This document shows positions 6,276-16,236 of a stretch of 64,000 nucleotides of DNA, one piece after another. Source of the stretch: Candidatus Iainarchaeum sp. (lineage in GTDB: Archaea; Iainarchaeota; Iainarchaeia; Iainarchaeales; UBA10219). Both the position numbers and the translations under genes were made by a program. The notes beneath the pieces are model-generated. The model did no database searches. It saw only the letters and a list, made by a program, of their open reading frames with translations, and had not been told where the DNA came from. Numbering within the stretch: the first letter of the stretch is position 1; each line of letters starts with the position of its first letter. Location: positions 27,163-91,162 of the forward strand of contig JAGVWE010000003.1 in assembly GCA_018304425.1 (NCBI GenBank). The letters run 5' to 3'.

Positions 6276-6758
6276 ATGCATTTCGTCGAGGTAGGGTGCA
6301 AGCCAGGGGTCAGGGACGTGCTGGGCCAGGCCGTCAAGGCCCGCCTCGAAGAAGACTTGTCCGCAGGAGTTAAAGGCCTCCGGAGGGTTGCTTTTATCGA
6401 CGTTTACCGCCTGGAATGCCTTTTGTCGCCCCAGGAAGCCGAAAGGATCGGGGCCGAGCTCTTGCGCGACCCCATTACCCAGGTGTTTGCCGTGGACCAG
6501 CCGGTGGAAGGGGGCTTTGACTGGAGTGTTACGGTGAGCCTCCACCAGAATGTTACGGACAACGTGGGCATCGCGGCCAGGGAAGGCATTGAAGACCTCC
6601 TGGGCCGGAAGCTGGACGAAGGCGAGCGCCTCCACTACGACCGGAAATACCTGTTCTGGGGCGACCTCACCGAGGCCCAGGTGAGGGACCTGGCTGGAAA
6701 GGCCTTGGCCAATGATTTCCTCGAGCATTGCCGGGTGGAGCGCGGCAGCCATGCCTGA
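6276..6758 (+). CDS. purS: Phosphoribosylformylglycinamidine synthase subunit PurS, fused tandem (two PurS-like halves)
   Basis: Both halves match the PurS pattern (KPGVRDVLGQAV...; VTVSLHQNVTDNVGIAAREGIEDLLG). ATG at 6276 is preceded by GGGGGAG. Its stop overlaps the purL ATG (ATGCCTGA). Confidence 0.65.
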   Translation: MHFVEVGCKPGVRDVLGQAVKARLEEDLSAGVKGLRRVAFIDVYRLECLLSPQEAERIGAELLRDPITQVFAVDQPVEGGFDWSVTVSLHQNVTDNVGIAAREGIEDLLGRKLDEGERLHYDRKYLFWGDLTEAQVRDLAGKALANDFLEHCRVERGSHA

Positions 6759-9144
6759 ACTTCGCGTGCTCGACCGGAAGCCCGCTGACCTGGTGCGGCT
6801 GGGCAAGGAAGCGCAACTCCACCTAAACGAAGGGGAGTTCGCCGCCATCCAGAAATACTTCGAGCGCCTGGGACGCGAGCCCACGCAACTGGAACTGGAG
6901 ACGATTGCCCAGACCTGGAGCGAGCACTGCAAGCACAAGGTGTTCAACGGCGTCATCGAGTACGTGGACGAGCGCGGCCACAAGGAAATCATCGACAACC
7001 TCTTCAAGCGCACCATCCGGAAGGCGACGGAGCGGGTGGCAGGGGAAGTCGGCTGGCTGGTGTCCGTCTTCAAGGACAACGCGGGCATCATTGCCTTCAA
7101 TTCATCCCACCACGCCTGCATGAAAGTGGAAACGCATAACCATCCCAGCGCCCTGGACCCCTACGGGGGAGCGAACACGGGCCTGGGGGGAGTCATCCGC
7201 GACGTGCTGGGCTGCGGCCTGGGCGCGAAGCCGGTCGCGAACACGGATGTCTTCTGCTTTGGGTTGCCGGACCTGGCCTACAAGGACTTGCCAAGCGGCG
7301 TCCTCCACCCCAAGCGCATTGCCAAGGGCGTGCGGGAGGGCGTGCGCGACTACGGCAACCGCATTGGGATTCCGACTGTGAACGGGGCCATCCTCTTCGA
7401 TGCCAGGTACACGTGCAATCCCCTGGTCTACTGCGGCACGGTGGGCGTGCTGCCCAAGGGCATGGAGTCAAAGCAGGCCAGGCCCGGCGACAAAATCGTT
7501 GCCATCGGGGGCCGGACCGGGCGCGACGGCATCCATGGCGCCACCTTTTCCTCCGCGGAACTGGACGAAAGTGTGTCCACCAGCGTGGTGCAAATCGGCA
7601 ACGCCATCGAGGAAAAAAAGTTCTTGGACGTCCTCTTGAAAGCACGTGACCTCCGCTTGTACTCGAGCCTCACCGACTGCGGGGCCGGAGGCTTTTCGAG
7701 CGCGGTCGGGGAGATGGGCGCTGATTGCGGGGCACGCGTCGACCTCGAAAAGGCGCCGTTGAAGTACGCGGGCATGCAGTCCTGGGAAATCTGGGTCAGC
7801 GAGAGCCAGGAACGCATGGTGCTGGCCGTGCCTCCCGGGAACGTCGAGCGGCTCGTGAAATTGTTCGCGGACGAGGACGTGGAAGCCAGCGTCATCGGCG
7901 AGTTCACGGATGACCGGTTACTGAGCGTCCACCATGGCGGGCAATTGGCCGGGCAACTGGACATGGCTTTCCTGCACCGGGGCAACCCGCGGCTCGAGCA
8001 GAAGGCATCCTGGAAGCCCAAGCCCTTCGAGGAGCCCGTCTTTTCGGAGCCCAAAAACCTGGGAAGCCTGCTGAAGCGATTGCTGGCCGCCCCGAATATT
8101 GCCTCCAAGGAGACGACCATCCGCCAGTACGACCACGAAGTGCAGGGAGGTTCCGTCTTGAAGCCGCTGGTGGGAGCGGACCTGGATGGCCCGGGGGATG
8201 CCGCCATCATGCGGCCCTTCTTCGACGGCTGGGCGGGTTTGGCGGTTTCCAATGGCATCAACCCCTTGTATGGGGACATCGACCCCTATTGGATGGCGGC
8301 TTCCGCGATTGACGAAGCCCTGCGGAACCTGGTCGCGGTGGGCTGTTCCCTGGAACGGGTGGCCTTGTTGGACAACTTTTGCTGGGGCAACCCAAAAGAC
8401 GAGGCAAAGCTCGGCGAACTCGTGCGCGCCGCGAAAGCCTGCCACGACGTGGCCGTGGCCTTCAAAACCCCTTTCATCTCGGGCAAGGACTCCTTCCACA
8501 ACGAGTACACGGTGGGAGGCAAGACCGTTTCCATTCCCTCAACCCTCTTGATTTCCGCGTTGGGCGTCATGGGGGACGTGCGGCAACGGGTGTCCATGGA
8601 CTTCAAGCAAAAAGGCAATCCCCTCTACGTCGTGGGAAAAACGTTCCAGGAACTGGGCGGCAGCCACTATTATCGGCTGCAGGGTGCGGTGGGGCGAAGC
8701 GTGCCCAGACTGGTGGTTGCCAGGGCCCGGAAACAGTATGCGGGGCTGGCGAAGGCTGCCGCAATTGGGGTGGGGAAGAAAAACCGCGACCGCGTGGTGC
8801 GCGCCATGCATGACTGCAGCGAGGGCGGCCTGGGCGTGGCATTGGCGGAGATGGCGTTTGCCGGCGGGCTGGGCTGTGAAATCGACCTGCGAAAGCTCCC
8901 ACGCGAGGGCGTGGAACGGAATGACTACGCGTTGTTCAGCGAGAGCAACGCGCGCCACCTCGTGGAAGTCAACAAGTCAAAGCGAACGGCCTTCGAGCGG
9001 CTGCTCAGGGGAACCGATTTCGCCTGCATTGGCCGGGTGACGGGCCCTGGGCGGCTGGTGGTAAAAGGCCTGCAGGGAGAAACCGTGCTGGACGAGGACG
9101 GCAAGGCATTGAAGAAGGCATGGAAGGGGACGCTGAACTGGTGA
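6751..9144 (+). CDS. purL: Phosphoribosylformylglycinamidine synthase II, PurL
   Basis: AIR-synthase-related PurL domains, ~798 aa (small-PurL type); start coupled to the purS stop. Confidence 0.9.
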   Translation: MPELRVLDRKPADLVRLGKEAQLHLNEGEFAAIQKYFERLGREPTQLELETIAQTWSEHCKHKVFNGVIEYVDERGHKEIIDNLFKRTIRKATERVAGEVGWLVSVFKDNAGIIAFNSSHHACMKVETHNHPSALDPYGGANTGLGGVIRDVLGCGLGAKPVANTDVFCFGLPDLAYKDLPSGVLHPKRIAKGVREGVRDYGNRIGIPTVNGAILFDARYTCNPLVYCGTVGVLPKGMESKQARPGDKIVAIGGRTGRDGIHGATFSSAELDESVSTSVVQIGNAIEEKKFLDVLLKARDLRLYSSLTDCGAGGFSSAVGEMGADCGARVDLEKAPLKYAGMQSWEIWVSESQERMVLAVPPGNVERLVKLFADEDVEASVIGEFTDDRLLSVHHGGQLAGQLDMAFLHRGNPRLEQKASWKPKPFEEPVFSEPKNLGSLLKRLLAAPNIASKETTIRQYDHEVQGGSVLKPLVGADLDGPGDAAIMRPFFDGWAGLAVSNGINPLYGDIDPYWMAASAIDEALRNLVAVGCSLERVALLDNFCWGNPKDEAKLGELVRAAKACHDVAVAFKTPFISGKDSFHNEYTVGGKTVSIPSTLLISALGVMGDVRQRVSMDFKQKGNPLYVVGKTFQELGGSHYYRLQGAVGRSVPRLVVARARKQYAGLAKAAAIGVGKKNRDRVVRAMHDCSEGGLGVALAEMAFAGGLGCEIDLRKLPREGVERNDYALFSESNARHLVEVNKSKRTAFERLLRGTDFACIGRVTGPGRLVVKGLQGETVLDEDGKALKKAWKGTLNW

Positions 9145-9149
9145 AAATC

Positions 9150-9914
9150 ATGGCGGAATTCAAGGCAATGGTGTTGAAGACGGCGGGAACCAATTGCGAT
9201 TTCGAGACGGCCGAGGCCCTGCGGTTGGCGGGTTTTTCGCCGGAAACCATGCACGTCAACGAACTCATCCGCGGCGGGAAAAACCTGCGCGACTACCGCT
9301 TCCTGGTGTTGCCGGGCGGCTTTTCCCACGGGGACTACATCGCATCGGGGAAAATTTTGGCCAATAAGCTCAAATACCGGCTCGGCGAAGACGTTCCCCG
9401 GTTCATCGAGGAGGGCAACCTCGTGCTGGGCATCTGCAACGGCTTCCAGACCCTGGTGAAGGCCGGGCTGCTGCCGGGCTTTGACGGGAACTACAAGCGG
9501 CAGGACGTGACCCTGACGTTCAACGACTCCGGGCACTTCCAGGACGAGTGGATCGAGTTGAAGAACGTGAACAAGGGCCGGTGCGTGTTCTCGAAGGGCC
9601 TCCGGAAAACCATCCACTGCCCCATCAACCACGGGGAAGGGAAATTCATTCCCGGAAGCCGGAAGGTGCTGGCGCGGCTGCACGAACAGGACCAGGTGGT
9701 GTTCAAGTACGCGGGCAGGAACCCCAACGGGTCTTTGGACGACATCGCCGGCATCTGCGACGAAACCGGGCGGGTGCTGGGCTTGATGCCGCACTGCGAG
9801 AAAAACCTTTTCTCCGTGAACGACCCGCGGAGCACGCGCCTGGACCTGCCAGTCGAGGGAGAGGGCACGGCGATTTTCAGGAAGGCGTTCGAGTTCGTGA
9901 AAAAAAGGAAATAA
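9150..9914 (+). CDS. purQ: Phosphoribosylformylglycinamidine synthase I (glutaminase) PurQ
   Basis: Class-I glutamine amidotransferase (GICNGFQ, HxE near the C-terminus); ATG 5 nt after the purL stop. Confidence 0.85.
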   Translation: MAEFKAMVLKTAGTNCDFETAEALRLAGFSPETMHVNELIRGGKNLRDYRFLVLPGGFSHGDYIASGKILANKLKYRLGEDVPRFIEEGNLVLGICNGFQTLVKAGLLPGFDGNYKRQDVTLTFNDSGHFQDEWIELKNVNKGRCVFSKGLRKTIHCPINHGEGKFIPGSRKVLARLHEQDQVVFKYAGRNPNGSLDDIAGICDETGRVLGLMPHCEKNLFSVNDPRSTRLDLPVEGEGTAIFRKAFEFVKKRK

Positions 9915-9928
9915 GCCCTGCCGTGAAT

Positions 9929-12124
9929 TCATTTCCGCAGCTTCAAGTCGAAGACCAGGCAGTCCACCTTCTTGGTTTTCTTCCCGAAGTAGAATACCAT
10001 GGACTTCCGCAGGTTCCGGTAGAGCCGGAAACCCATGTTCTTGCAGATGGCAATGCCTTCCGGGTTGTTCCCTTCAAAGCCCAGGGTGACCTTCTTGATT
10101 CCCTGTTTCCTCGCGAAACCAATGGCTTCCCGCAGCAGGGCGGTCGCAATGCCCTTGCCCCTGAACTCTGGCAGCGTGGCAGTGGAGGGGATGAACAGGA
10201 TGGGGCCATCTGGGACATGGGTCTGCCGCGGGTTGTCCGTAACGCAGTAGCCGTGCCGCTTCGTCCAGCGCTCGGTCAGGCAGTACCCGATGACCTGGTT
10301 GTTGACTTCGGCCGCAAAACAGCCGGCGGGGTGCAGTTCGAGCCTGGCCGCGTAATGGGACCTGGGGTCGCAGATTCCGCGGTTGAAAGCCTTTCGCTGT
10401 ATTTCCACGATGCGGTCCAGGTCCCCTGATTTCGCCTTCCGGATCCTGAACGAGGCAAAGTACTGGCGGACCAGGACGCGCACGATGTTGGACTTGAAGG
10501 AATCCCGCTCGGTTCTCGCCACCCGCCCAGCCGCCGCGGGGATGTGTCCGCCGGCGGAGCCCAGCTCCAGGCCCTGCACGGCTTCCTCCAGCAGGTCGTT
10601 GACCTTCACCTTGAAGTCCTGCCGCCGCCCCGAAAAGCGGAGCAGCTTGTCGCCCTTGTCCTGGATGAGGATGAGCGTCTGCCGGGGGAACAACTGGGTG
10701 CTGAGCTTGTTGACCAAGGCGGACTTTATCTCGTACCCTGACTTTATTTCGTAGAATATGAGGTCGAGTTCGGGGATGAATTCCGCTTTCTGGCGGACGC
10801 CCGAGTAAAGCCGCCCGATCTCGCGCTCGAAGGTCTTCTTGTACCGCATGAACTGGCTTCGCAGGACTTCCCGCCAGTTCCGCGCGCAATAGAATTCCCT
10901 GAACAGCCGGGGGAACTCCTTCGGGGCCAGGGACTCGACCGAGGAAATGAGTTCCTTGAGTTCGAGGAGCTTTTCAAGCGGCACCTTGTTCCGGTGGCAG
11001 GTGTCCTTGATGAACTTCCGCCAGGTGCGAAGGCCCATGTCCGCCAGCACGCCGATGGCCGAAATCCAGTCGGTTTCCCGCACGTCGATGACCTGGTTCA
11101 TGCAGTCGAAGACGAGTTTGGCGGCCGGGTACTTGCTGCCATCCAAAGCAGAAAGGTACTGGGCCTTGATGAAGATGACTCTTCCGGATGCCAGGTCCTG
11201 GTAGATTTTGTGGTGGTCGAAGACCACGAACTGGATGTTCTTCGGGGCCTCCTCGATGAGCACGGGGTTGGAGTCGATGCCGATGTCGGAAACAATCACC
11301 TTGTTGATGTCGTGCTTGACGAGGAGGGGGATTATCTTTTCCCGCGTCTCGCGGTCCGAGTAGCCGGAGGGAATCTCCAACTCGGCCGGCCTGCCCCGCA
11401 GTTTCTCGATGGCGCGGTTGAGGATGCAGGCCGAGGTCAGGCCATCCGCGTCCAAGTGGTGGACGAGCGCAATGCGGTCCTCCCGGCGGAGGTGGTACAT
11501 GAAGGTCGTGAGGCGCCCCAAGAGCTTCCGCGCATCCAGTTGCTTGGGAATCTTGTCCTTTATCTGGCTGCCCAGCCTCAAATCGAGTTCAAAGACCAGG
11601 CCGTCCACGGGCTCCCGGTGCAGGGGCTTGAAAAAACCGGGCACCGTTTTCTTGAGCTTGAACCGGAATTTCGAGTAAAACCCGTGCGCGCGCTTCTGCG
11701 TGCGCCGCGAAACCAGCAAGGCCTTCGAGCAATGGTGCCTGCGTGCAAGGTCCAGCAAGGCGTGCATGAGCTTGGTTCCAATCCCCTTGGCCTGGTGGTC
11801 GGGATGCACGGCCACCACGTGAATGTACATGATTTGGCCGCTGGAGACATGCCGGCCTCGAATGGGTTGGCCGGCTTCCAGGGGATGCATTTCATCCCAA
11901 AACTCGGCGCTGAGGTAACCCAAAATCTGGCCCTCCTCCTCGTATGCGAGGAAGCCATCCCGAAAGGCTTTAAGGCGCTTCCGGAGGGTTTCGCGGCTGT
12001 CGGCGATGCCAGGCGGAAAGATGAGGCGCTCGAGCCCGGCCAGTTGCTTCAAGTCCGTTTCCCGCGCCCGCCTCACCGGCGATACATAGGCGTATCCCGT
12101 TGCATGGTCTTTCAACTGGCTCAC
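9929..12124 (-). CDS. Multidomain protein: N-terminal GNAT acetyltransferase, DHH/DHHA1 phosphoesterase core, C-terminal GNAT acetyltransferase
   Basis: GNAT motif A twice (VAVHPDHQAKGIGTKLM; LPEFRGKGIATALL). DHH motifs (HHLDADGLTSA; VVFDHHK) and the DHHA1 GGGH motif (GSAGGHIPAAAG). GTG start. TTTTTTT tract after the stop on the minus strand. Confidence 0.75.
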   Translation of the reverse strand: MSQLKDHATGYAYVSPVRRARETDLKQLAGLERLIFPPGIADSRETLRKRLKAFRDGFLAYEEEGQILGYLSAEFWDEMHPLEAGQPIRGRHVSSGQIMYIHVVAVHPDHQAKGIGTKLMHALLDLARRHHCSKALLVSRRTQKRAHGFYSKFRFKLKKTVPGFFKPLHREPVDGLVFELDLRLGSQIKDKIPKQLDARKLLGRLTTFMYHLRREDRIALVHHLDADGLTSACILNRAIEKLRGRPAELEIPSGYSDRETREKIIPLLVKHDINKVIVSDIGIDSNPVLIEEAPKNIQFVVFDHHKIYQDLASGRVIFIKAQYLSALDGSKYPAAKLVFDCMNQVIDVRETDWISAIGVLADMGLRTWRKFIKDTCHRNKVPLEKLLELKELISSVESLAPKEFPRLFREFYCARNWREVLRSQFMRYKKTFEREIGRLYSGVRQKAEFIPELDLIFYEIKSGYEIKSALVNKLSTQLFPRQTLILIQDKGDKLLRFSGRRQDFKVKVNDLLEEAVQGLELGSAGGHIPAAAGRVARTERDSFKSNIVRVLVRQYFASFRIRKAKSGDLDRIVEIQRKAFNRGICDPRSHYAARLELHPAGCFAAEVNNQVIGYCLTERWTKRHGYCVTDNPRQTHVPDGPILFIPSTATLPEFRGKGIATALLREAIGFARKQGIKKVTLGFEGNNPEGIAICKNMGFRLYRNLRKSMVFYFGKKTKKVDCLVFDLKLRK

Positions 12125-12258
12125 CCCTCGCTCTCCAAGCCATCCATACTATGGTTTGAACCCCTATATAAACAATGGGTTGATTTCCTTGCCTTGCCCG
12201 GCCCAAGAAAACCTTATTAAGCTGAACCCCCATACGTTAAATCCGGTGGGTGCGGCAA

Positions 12259-12426
12259 ATGGCGTATGAACACCGGAACTCCAGGGGAAAAACCTATTAC
12301 CTGCACCAGAAGGGCAGGCTATACTACTTCGCATCCAAGCAGGGGCCCAACGCCATCGACCTTCCCGAAGGCTTCAAAGTCATCGAGAACCCGAAGACCG
12401 GGCTGCCCATGCTGAAAGGCAAATGA
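12259..12426 (+). CDS. Small hypothetical protein (55 aa, KTYYLHQKG...YYF motif)
   Basis: ATG ORF below the track cutoff; not supported by homology I can verify. Confidence 0.3.
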   Translation: MAYEHRNSRGKTYYLHQKGRLYYFASKQGPNAIDLPEGFKVIENPKTGLPMLKGK

Positions 12427-12433
12427 ATTACTT

Positions 12434-13261
12434 CTATTCGGCGACCTTGGAAGTGCCGAGTTCCCGAATACGCACCTCGCACAGTCTAGCCCAGGACGGC
12501 ATCAGTTCCCGGATGGTAAATTCGTCCTCGGCCGCTGGCCGGCCTGCAAGCCGCTTGCCCAATGCCCGGTAACCCGCCATGAGTTGCCTCCTCTGGTTTC
12601 GGGTCAAACCGATTTTCTGCACCCACGCGAGTTGCTCCACTTCGTAGAGCGCTCCCACCGATGCCGCCAACTCCCGGGCTTCCTTCAGCCTGGCTTCAGC
12701 CGCTTCCAGCTCCACCCGAGTCCGTGCAAGCGCCTTGGACAGTTTCGATTCGCTCAGGCGCTCGAACAACTTGTGCTTCAGGTTAAACTCCAGGGCCTCC
12801 CGTTGAACCTTGTAGGCGTTGATTCGCTTGCGCCATAGCTCCACGTGATTCAAGAAAAAATCCTTCATGGACTCTGGTGAGGAGCCGATGGTCCAAAAAC
12901 GGGAGAATTTTCGCCCAAATTCCCTGGCGTTGGCATCCGTTCCATTGTAGTCCGCCAACAGGCCGTTGGCCCTGCGCCGGAGTTGTTCCCGCGTCTCGCG
13001 CCGTTCCCGCCGCCGGCCCATGGCCCGCGCGCGGTACCGCACGTACTCTTCGTAGCCGGGCTCGAACTCGGAGTAGGCACGCGATTCAAAGGGCTTGGTC
13101 CGCAGGTCCTTGTACATGGGCCGCTTGGCCGGGGGAAGGCCTTGCTCCCGGCGCAACTGATACTGGGCGCGGTAACGGGCCAGCCTCCTGCGCTGCACGA
13201 GGCGAAAATAGTTGCCCCGCTCCATCAAGGTGGGCTTCCGCCTGGGTGCCGGGCTTACCAT
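12434..13261 (-). CDS. Arg-rich hypothetical protein, member A of a tandem triad
   Basis: ATG at 13261 (MVSPAPRRKPTL) with GTTTATAAAC 22-31 nt upstream on the minus strand; coiled-coil-like C-terminus. The track ORF extends to 13342. Confidence 0.5.
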   Translation of the reverse strand: MVSPAPRRKPTLMERGNYFRLVQRRRLARYRAQYQLRREQGLPPAKRPMYKDLRTKPFESRAYSEFEPGYEEYVRYRARAMGRRRERRETREQLRRRANGLLADYNGTDANAREFGRKFSRFWTIGSSPESMKDFFLNHVELWRKRINAYKVQREALEFNLKHKLFERLSESKLSKALARTRVELEAAEARLKEARELAASVGALYEVEQLAWVQKIGLTRNQRRQLMAGYRALGKRLAGRPAAEDEFTIRELMPSWARLCEVRIRELGTSKVAE

Positions 13262-13328
13262 AACCGATATACGGCGTTTCCGGTTTATAAACTTGCCTGG
13301 CCCCGTTCCTCGTCCATTGGCTGGAAGA

Positions 13329-13937
13329 TTACGCGGTGCCACTACTGAACTTTTTTATTTCCGAAGTTAGATAACCTTCAAGCAAGGCGAGCAAGCCGTG
13401 CGGATAGTCCGATCCACGGAGCCTCCCAGCATTGACTTCGGCGCGGTGTTGCCTGAATGCATTCAAGGCACGTTGAAAGAGTTCGGCCACGCTTTTTCGT
13501 TGTGGGCGAAGAAGCCCAGCTGGATCCAAGCCAGGGCCCTGTCGGAAATAGTCCAGGTCAGCAAATACCGCCTTCATTTCCCCTGCAAAGGCGGCACTTG
13601 CTCTTGCCATCGTTATGCCCTGCCTGGCTGCCTCAATTTCTGCTGGGGGGCGGCCCTCAAGGGATGCAAGCTGATTAAACAGCTCGGCTTTGGCCACTTC
13701 GTGTTCTCCTCTTATGCGCTCCATGTCGAAAAATTCGTGCCACATCACGGAATGCACGTTCGTTCCCGCTTGCAAAATGCCACTCGCAATGGATCCCGTG
13801 AGGTGCCTTGCATTGGCCAAGTCACGTTGAAGCCCGCCAACCGCACGCCATTTCTCATCAATCAACTGTTGCGTGCGAGGGTTAGCTCTTCTCGGCCTTC
13901 CCCTCCTTGGATCCTCAGGCCTCCGCTCTAACGGCAT
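13329..13937 (-). CDS. Arg-rich hypothetical protein, member B of a tandem paralog pair
   Basis: ATG at 13937 (MPLERRPEDPRRGRPRR) with TTTAAATA 22-29 nt upstream. Conserved blocks with the next gene (SVMWHEF/SVVHDFN; AFAGEMKAVFADLDY/AYAQEMKGIFFRLTDLD). Confidence 0.55.
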   Translation of the reverse strand: MPLERRPEDPRRGRPRRANPRTQQLIDEKWRAVGGLQRDLANARHLTGSIASGILQAGTNVHSVMWHEFFDMERIRGEHEVAKAELFNQLASLEGRPPAEIEAARQGITMARASAAFAGEMKAVFADLDYFRQGPGLDPAGLLRPQRKSVAELFQRALNAFRQHRAEVNAGRLRGSDYPHGLLALLEGYLTSEIKKFSSGTA

Positions 13938-13988
13938 AAAAGAATTGCCGCTGACCAATTTAAATAGTTTCCAGTCGCCGTAATCCGG

Positions 13989-14609
13989 TTAGCCGCCTTC
14001 AAATCTTCCAGCCACGACGCTCAAATGTCGCTCTAACAGCATTCGCACTTCCCGGTCATTGTCTGATTCATGGATGCTTCCGGCCGCGATTTGCCTACGA
14101 TGCTCGTCTAACAAACTCAGGGCACGCTTTAAAGCCCCTTGTACCTCGGCTCGTTGCGATGGTGAAAGCTTACTTGGAATCAAGCCAACCTTTGCATCCA
14201 AATCAGTTAGTCTAAAGAATATGCCCTTCATTTCCTGTGCATAGGCAGCCGCTGCCTTGGCCTGGTTAAGAACACTAGCAGCCTCCACCCTTGCCCCTGA
14301 TCCCATTTGTTTCAAGAGAGTCGCTCTACGAACCAGCTTTTCTCTTCCAACGTTAAAATCATGCACGACGGAAAGCGTAGCAAAATAATCAGCCCACGGA
14401 CGAGGGTTGGCAACATCCGCCCAGTTCCATACTTCAGCCTGTGCCAATTCAAGAGCCACCCGCATGGATTCCATCCTTCGGTTTTGCTCCCCAATGCCTT
14501 CCAGGGTTTGTCGATAAAGCTGTGCCCTGCGGGTTGCCCCCGCCGTTGGTTTCCCTTGACCCCGTCGTTCCTCAGGCCGCCGCCTGTCAACCCGCTTGTC
14601 AACCGCCAT
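13989..14609 (-). CDS. Arg-rich hypothetical protein, member C of a tandem paralog pair
   Basis: ATG at 14609 (MAVDKRVDRRRPEERRG). Promoter-proximal sequence CATAAAAGAA(C/T)T...ACCAATTTAAATA is duplicated with gene B. Confidence 0.55.
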   Translation of the reverse strand: MAVDKRVDRRRPEERRGQGKPTAGATRRAQLYRQTLEGIGEQNRRMESMRVALELAQAEVWNWADVANPRPWADYFATLSVVHDFNVGREKLVRRATLLKQMGSGARVEAASVLNQAKAAAAYAQEMKGIFFRLTDLDAKVGLIPSKLSPSQRAEVQGALKRALSLLDEHRRQIAAGSIHESDNDREVRMLLERHLSVVAGRFEGG

Positions 14610-14629
14610 AAAAGAACTATTCCTAACCA

Positions 14630-14640
14630 ATTTAAATATC
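14630..14640. promoter_or_regulatory. Single TTTAAATA TATA box shared by divergent genes (paralog C on minus, tldD on plus)
   Basis: TATA ~22-30 nt from both start codons (14609 minus, 14662 plus). Confidence 0.45.
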
Positions 14641-14661
14641 TTTACTGGCTGTTTAAAAGCA

Positions 14662-16236
14662 ATGCAAGCCAAACTACTGGGCATCGAGGCCTTGGAGCCG
14701 GCGAAGGACGTCATTGTCAAGGCCCTCGACGAGGCGAAGCGCAAGGCCTACCTCGCCTATGCGGATGTGCGCCTGGACTTGGGGGAAGGCAAAGCGGTTT
14801 TCGCCTTGCAAGGCAATGCCAAGGGCGCAACGGAAGACAATGAAATGAGTTGCGGGGTCCGCGTTTACGTTGAGAAGGGCGGCGTGGCCTCGGCGGGTTT
14901 TGTCGGCCGGAGCCTTGGCGAACAGGAACTGAACGGCCTGGCCCAGGTGCTCAAGGAGATGCACGGCCTGGCCTACAAGCGCGCCAGGGCGAACCAAGCA
15001 CATAAGCGAGCCCTGGCGAAGAAATACAAGTTTTTCGGGAAGAGCCTGACCGCGGGAAAGCTGGCCCCGGTCAAGGCCTGCGTGGACACGCTTAAGCCCA
15101 GTTTCAAGCGGAACCCACGCGACTACTCCTTCGAGGAACTGGTGCGGCGCACCGAGCGCTGCAGCCAACTGGTCCAAAAGCTGCCGGGCATGGCCTCGAA
15201 CAGCGTTTCCATCGTGACCGGCCTGGGAAGGCAATTGTTCGCCAGCACGGAGGGCGCGTTCATCGACGACTCCAATGCCCTAACCCAGGGATTCCTCTTC
15301 GTGACCGCGAAAGGCAAGGCAGTTGAAACCTTTTACGAGTGGAACGGCGCCTATGCAGGCCTGGAAGTGCTCGAAGGCGAGAACGGCTTCCGGATGAACT
15401 TCGAGGACTTCTGCCAATACATCGCCGAAGGCACCATCGAGGTCTCGAATGCACCCGCCATGAAGACCACGGAAAAGCCAATGACCGTCATCTGCGACCC
15501 GCGCTTCAACGCCCTGGTCTCCCACGAGATCTGCGGCCACCCCAGCGAAGCCGACCGCGCCCTGAAACGCGAGGCGGCCTGGGCTGGAAGGGCGTGGTGG
15601 TTCAGGGGCATGGACGACAACGAATTCGGGAAACCCGTGGCCTCGGAACAGGTCAGCGTCTTCTCGGACCCCAGCCTGCAAGGCTATGGCAATTACAAGT
15701 ACGACGACGAGGGCGTGCCAGCGAAGAAGGTCTACAACATCAAGGAAGGGCGGCTGAACGCGTTCATCAACTCAAGGGAAACGGCCACCATCCTGGGCCA
15801 GGAACCCAATGGCGGGATGAGAGCCGCGAGCGCTATGCAGGTGCCGCTCATCCGCATGAACAACACCTGCCTCGACAAGGGCGACTGGTCGAAGGACGAA
15901 ATCTTCAAGGACACCCGGGAAGGCTATTACCTGTTCGGCCAGAAAACGCCTTCCATTGGGGAGACGCGGCAGAACTTCAAGATCACCTGCTGGAAGCTGT
16001 ACAAGGTCGAGAACGGCGAATTGACGCAGCTCTACCGCATGGGCGGGATTACTGCCGACTCGGCGGCCTACCTGAAAAGCATCGACGCCGCTGCGGATGA
16101 CCTGCACGTGCACAACATCCCCAACTGCGGGAAGGGAACCCCCATGCAGAGCATGATGGTCGGGAACGGCGGCCCGCACACGCGGGGAAAGGCCATTGTC
16201 ACCGGCGCCCACGCCGAGGGAAGGGGCAGCCTATGA
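14662..16236 (+). CDS. tldD: Metalloprotease TldD
   Basis: TldD/PmbA fold with the HEICGH motif; ATG 26 nt downstream of the TATA. Confidence 0.85.
   Translation: MQAKLLGIEALEPAKDVIVKALDEAKRKAYLAYADVRLDLGEGKAVFALQGNAKGATEDNEMSCGVRVYVEKGGVASAGFVGRSLGEQELNGLAQVLKEMHGLAYKRARANQAHKRALAKKYKFFGKSLTAGKLAPVKACVDTLKPSFKRNPRDYSFEELVRRTERCSQLVQKLPGMASNSVSIVTGLGRQLFASTEGAFIDDSNALTQGFLFVTAKGKAVETFYEWNGAYAGLEVLEGENGFRMNFEDFCQYIAEGTIEVSNAPAMKTTEKPMTVICDPRFNALVSHEICGHPSEADRALKREAAWAGRAWWFRGMDDNEFGKPVASEQVSVFSDPSLQGYGNYKYDDEGVPAKKVYNIKEGRLNAFINSRETATILGQEPNGGMRAASAMQVPLIRMNNTCLDKGDWSKDEIFKDTREGYYLFGQKTPSIGETRQNFKITCWKLYKVENGELTQLYRMGGITADSAAYLKSIDAAADDLHVHNIPNCGKGTPMQSMMVGNGGPHTRGKAIVTGAHAEGRGSL

Follow-up and report, generated by a model that had tools for sequence, protein, structure and literature searches.

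Among described DHH/DHHA1 proteins, two archaeal enzymes are structurally closest to the core of the protein reported here. MtPAPP is a specific 3'-phosphatase of 3'-phosphoadenosine-5'-phosphate (pAp), whose lobes are connected by a linker comprising residues 181-210 (PMC10322725). RecJ2 of M. jannaschii (MjRecJ2), a 3' exonuclease whose binding patch is short, acts efficiently on dinucleotides (PMC11193018). HAN, also considered below, is described as a 3'-5' exonuclease (PMC6158738). Here, we analyzed a stretch of 64,000 nucleotides (nt) from a Candidatus Iainarchaeum sp. (assembly GCA_018304425.1, contig JAGVWE010000003.1, positions 27,163 to 91,162; referred to as the window), which carries a single open reading frame (ORF) of 731 amino acids (aa) placing a DHH/DHHA1 core between two GNAT acetyltransferase modules. 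The fusion is unusual, yet assembled from well-known parts. We tentatively read its product as a bifunctional enzyme of this Iainarchaeia archaeon, which would unite a short-nucleotide phosphoesterase with a protein acetyltransferase, the substrates, the activities and their coupling being predictions from sequence and structural comparison.

The initial annotation had proposed the order GNAT - DHH/DHHA1 - GNAT within one ORF, and both Pfam and profiles built in this work agree with it. Pfam Acetyltransf_1 was detected at E 1.1e-34 in two separate stretches of the ORF, and Pfam DHH scored 38.2 bits (cut-off 28.1). Pfam DHHA1 scored 21.2 bits, which is under its cut-off of 25.9; homologues exceed this cut-off and the fold agrees. 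Our own profiles placed the module borders at aa 11-184 (GNAT), 198-554 (DHH/DHHA1) and 557-731 (GNAT), the C-terminal GNAT beginning immediately behind the last DHHA1 helix. All peptides quoted in the initial annotation were found in the ORF and mapped to window coordinates, as follows:

9929..12124 (-), whole ORF, GNAT - DHH/DHHA1 - GNAT; 731 aa plus stop, GTG start, TGA stop, uninterrupted
11573..12094 (-), N-terminal GNAT module (N-GNAT), Ard1/RimI-like, aa 11-184; from Pfam Acetyltransf_1 and the sub-family profile
11777..11797 (-), motif A of N-GNAT, HQAKGIG
11534..11572 (-), linker GSQIKDKIPKQLD from N-GNAT to core, aa 185-197; 86% identity between the two orthologues
11030..11533 (-), DHH catalytic lobe, aa 198-365; from Pfam DHH, conservation and pLDDT (predicted local distance difference test) >90
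11441..11461 (-), DHH motif I, HHLDADG
11273..11293 (-), DHH motif II, VSDIGID
11210..11218 (-), DHH motif III, DHH
11033..11053 (-), DHH motif IV, GVLADMG
10787..11029 (-), helical inter-lobe region of about 80 aa, aa 366-446; from the secondary structure of the model
10457..10786 (-), DHHA1 substrate-binding lobe, aa 447-556; from Pfam DHHA1 below cut-off, conservation and fold
10616..10633 (-), SGRRQD of the DHHA1 lobe, aa 498-503
10544..10552 (-), GGH of the DHHA1 lobe, aa 525-527
9932..10456 (-), C-terminal GNAT module (C-GNAT), Ard1-like, aa 557-731; from Pfam, PDB and sub-family profiles
10145..10162 (-), motif A of C-GNAT, RGKGIA

The fusion ORF is real and conserved and no assembly artefact. 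An identical 731-aa ORF is present on nine contigs from at least three assemblies, one of them from a Rifle-aquifer sample, and the 90% cluster of the protein contains four near-identical members from ENA, NCBI and JGI, of which the NCBI member is MBS3062838.1 (Candidatus Diapherotrites / Iainarchaeum). An orthologue of 734 aa (P0002; GCA_041643015.1) exhibits 59% identity over 99% of the length and has the same three modules and junctions. When broken down by module, identity between both proteins amounts to 44% in N-GNAT, 86% in the linker, 75% in the core and 41.5% in C-GNAT. A third variant (P0142) is truncated by the end of its contig, its N-GNAT being followed by the first part of the core. 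GC content and GC content at third codon positions (GC3) of all three modules match those of the neighbouring genes and thus give no hint of recently acquired foreign DNA. As the source is a metagenome assembly, the ORF might in principle be a chimera of separate genes, an outcome that the initial annotation had named as fatal to its proposal, or a decaying pseudogene fusion. Positive support for this was not found, and the recurrence of the ORF in independent assemblies and in three databases, the orthologue with its identical junctions and well-conserved linker, and the uniform base composition all speak against it, making such an origin almost inconceivable.

The rarity of the architecture was assessed by an exhaustive phmmer search against 1.84 billion protein cluster representatives. 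Among these, no second tri-domain cluster of the GNAT-DHH/DHHA1-GNAT type was detected, and no two-domain intermediates (GNAT-DHH or DHH-GNAT) were present in the best 150 matches, all of which scored above 140 bits. Apart from a few other fusions and two GNAT-only sequences (P0142 and P0239), the remaining strong matches are stand-alone DHH/DHHA1 proteins of about 350-370 aa. Nor was a description of a GNAT-DHH fusion found in the searchable literature, and the earlier statement that the architecture is not known to be characterised thus holds. Toward each other the fused cores are far closer than toward any stand-alone member, with which they share at most 47% identity; the fusion therefore originated once, within a narrow clade. 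The evidence is best accounted for by an addition, specific to this lineage, of two Ard1-like modules to a conserved DHH phosphoesterase.

The core itself has about 100-170 stand-alone homologues, which are around 360 aa in length and 30-46% identical. With aa 190-556 alone as query, about 100 such homologues at 26-45% identity were obtained, which belong, where named, mostly to Diapherotrites/Iainarchaeia. A scan of one genome per species returned 176 relatives; the best 80 of them derive mostly from Candidatus Iainarchaeum and to a minor extent from Woese-, Micr- and Nanoarchaeota, with the complete AR10 genome included. The metal ligands D225, D227, D280, D303, H304, H305 and D362 are present and invariant or nearly so across 89-98 aligned members, comprising motifs I-IV of the DHH superfamily (DxD, D, DHH, D; two-metal binding). 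The same holds for the DHHA1 lobe with its GGH and its Ser/Arg substrate motif: S498, R500, R501, Q502, D503, G525, G526 and H527 are present in the target and conserved family-wide. An AlphaFold model of aa 200-555 reached a pLDDT >90. It exhibits the compact DHH-linker-DHHA1 arrangement superposable on solved members of the NrnA/pAp phosphatase group, and Foldseek aligned it along nearly all of MtPAPP with a template-modelling score of 0.85. The closest structures are MjRecJ2 and MtPAPP.

Comparison of the core-family profile with the PDB ranked PfuRecJ at 2e-18, MjRecJ2 at 6e-17, TkoGAN at 4e-15, MtPAPP at 3e-10 and TmPDE at 3e-6, so by sequence the core is not nearer to the NrnA/pAp phosphatases than to other DHH groups. 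Scores for the curated nuclease families stayed far under their cut-offs: the best nuclease match in NCBIfam, NF053576 RecJ_archaeal, yielded 54.6 bits (cut-off 360), followed by NF040701 with 38.2 (550) and NF053575 GAN with 27.8 (850). With 357 aa, the core also falls short of full-size RecJ/GAN proteins, which have about 440-480 aa and a large insertion between DHH and DHHA1. Its inter-lobe region exceeds the 30-aa linker of MtPAPP by about 50 aa and does not reach the size of the GAN/Cdc45 insertion. Taken together, we class the core as a compact RecJ2/PAPP-like DHH/DHHA1 phosphoesterase, which most likely acts on short substrates or 3' ends. The family defined in this way is widespread in Iainarchaeia, and no description of it was found in the searched literature.

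The two GNAT modules are paralogous (29% identity over 170 aa, E 1e-21), and the profile of their sub-family matches the N module at E 1e-80. When a profile of five GNAT sequences was compared with the PDB, Sulfolobus Ard1 (SsArd1; SSO0209) was the best match (2e-16, full length), followed by Naa60, Naa30, Naa50, RimI and others; C-GNAT matches SsArd1 at 8e-6 over aa 558-705. The nearest solved relatives are N-terminal acetyltransferases (NATs), both by sequence and by fold. Both modules match a GNAT hidden Markov model above its cut-off, and motif A of the superfamily (Q/R-x-x-G-x-G/A) is preserved in each of them in the target as well as in P0002, which settles the earlier question whether such a scan would expose a module devoid of its acetyl-CoA motif. 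The five sequences also agree without exception at several polar positions (E, W, H, D). Against the rimI equivalog TIGR01575, whose cut-off is 86.4 bits, the whole protein reached 68.2 bits and the isolated N module 43 bits. A stand-alone relative, P0239, is 43% identical to the N module; it is encoded next to NadA and not next to a DHH gene. The modules are therefore NAT-like GNATs of a separate sub-family. A resemblance of N-GNAT to AANAT, suggested by its motif, was discarded, as the profile match of 5e-8 lies far behind Ard1.

P0239 is located at L006 541..1155 in sample ERZ27254845, which is the metagenome sample of the window's organism. The tail at its C-terminus, which is basic and overlaps with NadA, may have arisen from artefactual read-through.

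An analogy of the GNAT modules to toxins of the AtaT/TacT type, raised in the initial annotation, was not supported. Both modules are nearest to Ard1/Naa-type enzymes, none of the 60 best PDB matches listed for the GNAT profile is described as a toxin, and the flanking genes, purQ and a gene for a 55-aa all-beta protein, do not resemble an antitoxin gene.

The gene is not solitary either, contrary to what had been stated. The elements surrounding it are:

12259..12426 (+), divergent gene for a 55-aa protein (MAYEHRNSRGKTYYLHQKGRLYYFASKQGPNAIDLPEGFKVIENPKTGLPMLKGK), conserved neighbour of the DHH gene family
12165..12172 (-), TTTATATA box, 40 nt upstream of the GTG, read from the sequence; putative function
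9900..9906 (-), T7 run, 22-28 nt past the stop, archaeal terminator-like; putative function

The 55-aa gene starts 134 nt upstream of the fusion gene on the opposite strand, and is 91% identical at the locus of the orthologue P0002 (L001 383..550 (-)). It is also found upstream of, and divergent to, the stand-alone DHH gene in 53 of 74 loci with sufficient upstream sequence, at a distance of at most 300 nt in 40 of them, and wherever present it is divergent. This makes it the commonest neighbour of the family, ahead of TldD/PmbA, M24 peptidase, NucS, metallophosphoesterase and dCTP deaminase. The encoded proteins are basic, have 55-60 aa and share the consensus MxYEHxNSKGxKYYLHxxGxLYFFSKxxxxxIDLPxGYxVVENxxTGLPMLKKK. 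A single-sequence model of the 55-aa protein (pLDDT 78.6) is all-beta with six strands. No match was obtained in Pfam, NCBIfam or PDB-profile searches, and the model had no significant fold match (best E 0.24). An assignment as GINS B-domain was likewise unsupported in the fold search (E >=0.24). This small protein, of which no description was found in the searched literature, probably functions together with the DHH enzyme.

At the closest stand-alone locus (L002; 45% identity) the order is TldD/PmbA, small gene, DHH gene and then PurQ/PurL, as in the window. By its position, the fused core is therefore the orthologue of the DHH protein of about 360 aa that occurs widely as a separate protein in Iainarchaeia (Diapherotrites, DPANN).

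Regarding the ends of the gene, the GTG start and the T7 run past the stop could both be read in the sequence as previously reported. GGAGAGCGAGGG immediately precedes the GTG; this too was read from the sequence, and its function is putative. The T7 run falls within the last codons (KKRK; region 9900..9931) of purQ, which converges with the target, the two stop codons being only 14 nt apart. The purQ gene is part of a PurS, PurL, PurQ and PurF-like amidotransferase cluster adjoining the target (window 6712..9914; L089 6211..10196), and at least some of the genes for making purines de novo are therefore present in this DPANN archaeon.

Three ORFs on the same strand are located between the target and TldD (12434..13342, 13329..13958 and 13989..14744, all (-)). 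The corresponding gene-caller products have 275, 202 and 206 aa and are without Pfam or PADLOC match. Locus L002 has no counterpart of them at that position, and the upstream ORF at the P0002 locus has no homology to window ORF 12437..13342. By eye, 13329..13958 and 13989..14744 resemble paralogues. As PADLOC also returned nothing for the fusion protein and the 55-aa protein, an interpretation as a defence system was dropped. Around the stand-alone DHH genes (loci L008-L087), genes for NucS endonuclease, calcineurin-like metallophosphoesterase, M24 peptidase, TldD/PmbA and PurQ/PurL recur, and an uncharacterised protein of about 596 aa without Pfam match is encoded directly upstream in 14 loci. 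Of the 11 loci with a dCTP deaminase gene, 8 have it directly downstream of the DHH gene and in the same orientation (e.g. L003 6120..6683, L005 6076..6624).

Related DHH proteins occur in further fusions. P0122 (556 aa) joins a S-adenosylmethionine (SAM) methyltransferase to DHH/DHHA1, and P0154 (871 aa) combines DHH/DHHA1 with PocR, GAF and GGDEF domains, the GGEEF motif being intact. In P0106 (L088 759..2234), a single sequence on a 3-kb contig, a N-terminal DUF359 domain with similarity to GTP-dependent dephospho-CoA kinase (Pfam 1.2e-33; NF041125 4e-25) precedes a related DHH/DHHA1 unit. These three cases show that members of the DHH family are readily joined to enzymes that bind nucleotides or cofactors. 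In the searched literature, nothing specific was found on RecJ in DPANN, nor on DUF359 in connection with dephospho-CoA kinase.

How might the fusion protein work? In the reading we prefer, an ancestral RecJ-like DHH/DHHA1 phosphoesterase of Iainarchaeia, still in its ancestral genomic place with the small divergent gene, would have gained two paralogous Ard1/NAT-like GNATs, one per end, in one narrow clade. Since the core retains all metal- and substrate-binding residues, it would have kept the ancestral reaction of the family, in which, most likely, very short substrates are hydrolysed at their end with the help of Mn2+, as for MjRecJ2 and MtPAPP. Candidate substrates are dinucleotides, nanoRNA or short single-stranded DNA (ssDNA), or the 3'-phosphate of pAp. 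The acetyl-CoA motif and the shared polar residues suggest that both GNATs are active acetyltransferases modifying a protein amino group, either at the N-terminus or at lysine, and through the fusion both acetylation and phosphoester hydrolysis may be directed at one shared partner or complex. Several observations weigh against this proposal. The GNAT parts of the full-length model have a pLDDT of only about 50-70, because the GNAT alignment is shallow: a homologue search with N- and C-GNAT concatenated produced a single weak match (P0242) and no usable alignment depth. Moreover, the GNATs diverge much faster than the core, as seen from the identities between the orthologues, which also fits relaxed or non-catalytic roles. 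A GNAT of the sub-family was not detected within 6 kb at any of 80 stand-alone DHH loci; therefore, no widespread functional partnership underlies the fusion, and the activities that it joins could be unrelated. For the same reason, and with P0239 residing beside NadA, recruitment of the GNATs from a conserved neighbour was rejected. Finally, the profile placed RecJ/GAN nucleases above pAp phosphatase, and on this ranking the core might also act on long ssDNA or in the replisome.

This last point has a more elaborate version, in which the core is a shortened replisome nuclease of the Cdc45/GAN type and the tethered GNATs acetylate replisome or chromatin proteins. It would account for the leading profile matches to PfuRecJ, MjRecJ2 and TkoGAN, for RecJ_archaeal as the top NCBIfam nuclease match and for the wide distribution of the family in Iainarchaeia, and both dCTP deaminase and NucS among the neighbours would suit it. 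However, the low scores against the curated families, the missing length, with an 80-aa helical linker replacing the larger GAN/Cdc45 insertion, and the closest structures, which are enzymes of short substrates, render it improbable. Rather than being catalysts, the GNATs could be regulatory, i.e. they would bind acetyl-CoA or coenzyme A (CoA) or oligomerise and thereby gate the DHH unit by acetyl-CoA state. Paired or tandem GNAT folds with one non-catalytic copy are common, MshD and Eis being examples, and the rapid evolution of the modules relative to core and linker, as well as a core function that is older than the fusion and GNAT-free in all other lineages, would be in line with such a role. 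Yet motif A is fully kept in both modules, although these are only about 43% identical between the orthologues, and the invariant polar residues (E, H, D) in common with P0239 suggest a preserved active site. We regard such a regulatory role as unlikely.

The DHH cleft might alternatively act on 3'-phospho-ADP that is bound or released by the GNATs, that is on pAp or on the 3'-phosphate of CoA or acetyl-CoA. pAp is the nucleotide part of CoA (PMC8268124). The core resembles MtPAPP, and P0106 provides a second, independent fusion, in this case with a dephospho-CoA-kinase-like domain. Against this, P0106 is a lone sequence, distant from the target and nearer to canonical archaeal RecJ; the fusion partners vary and include the SAM methyltransferase and PocR-GAF-GGDEF; genes for CoA, sulfate assimilation or pantetheine are not conserved near the family; and CoA hydrolysis beside an acetyltransferase would be of no obvious benefit. 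The idea is consequently doubtful, as is the broader notion that DHH and GNATs constitute one acetyl-CoA-linked machine, be it for CoA/pAp turnover or for acetyl-CoA gating of the phosphoesterase, to which we likewise assign little probability. If true, a genome-reduced archaeon would have acetyl transfer coupled directly to the turnover of nucleotides or CoA. In line with the initial annotation, which considered a coupling of nucleotide or oligonucleotide turnover to acetylation, the GNATs could further acetylate nucleic acid or nucleotides while DHH processes the same RNA or DNA; aminoacyl-tRNA (as for AtaT/TacT), nucleobases (Mom) and cytidine (TmcA) come into consideration as targets. The DHH partner is a nucleic-acid enzyme, and Mom-family GNATs are fused to restriction-type nucleases in jumbo phages (PMC7824862); given the NAT-like nature of the modules described above, we consider this very improbable.

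Returning to the preferred reading: provided that the two activities exist and are coupled, no earlier case would be known of a phosphoesterase of the RecJ/NrnA type in one chain with protein acetyltransferases, and the protein would provide a handle on how a minimal-genome DPANN archaeon links nucleic-acid or nucleotide turnover to acetylation. If the fusion merely unites unrelated housekeeping activities, it would be a lineage-specific curiosity. In either case, the fusion protein offers a natural entry to the biochemistry of the compact DHH family and of the 55-aa all-beta basic protein.

Compared with MjRecJ2 (7YKV/6TVV), HAN and archaeal RecJ/GAN/Cdc45 (5X4H, 5GHR, 7BHI), which have 430-480 aa, the core with its approximately 360 aa lacks about 100 aa, its lobes being separated by just a short helical region, and the target alone carries a GNAT at each end. 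MtPAPP (8A8K), PyapApase and the NrnA/TmPDE nanoRNases share just 16-17% identity with the target, whose family is found without the sulfate-assimilation gene context of MtPAPP and PyapApase. In comparison to SsArd1 (2X7B/4LX9), T. volcanium Ard1 (4PV6), Naa10/30/50/60 and RimI, the target has two copies of the acetyltransferase per chain with a 370-aa phosphoesterase in between, and its modules form a sub-family of their own with P0239 as stand-alone member. Like GdpP (PAS-GGDEF-DHH-DHHA1), the fusion protein joins a DHH/DHHA1 hydrolase to another nucleotide- or cofactor-binding module; unlike GdpP, it is devoid of sensor, cyclase and membrane anchor, and the partners are a pair of acetyltransferases that flank the hydrolase.

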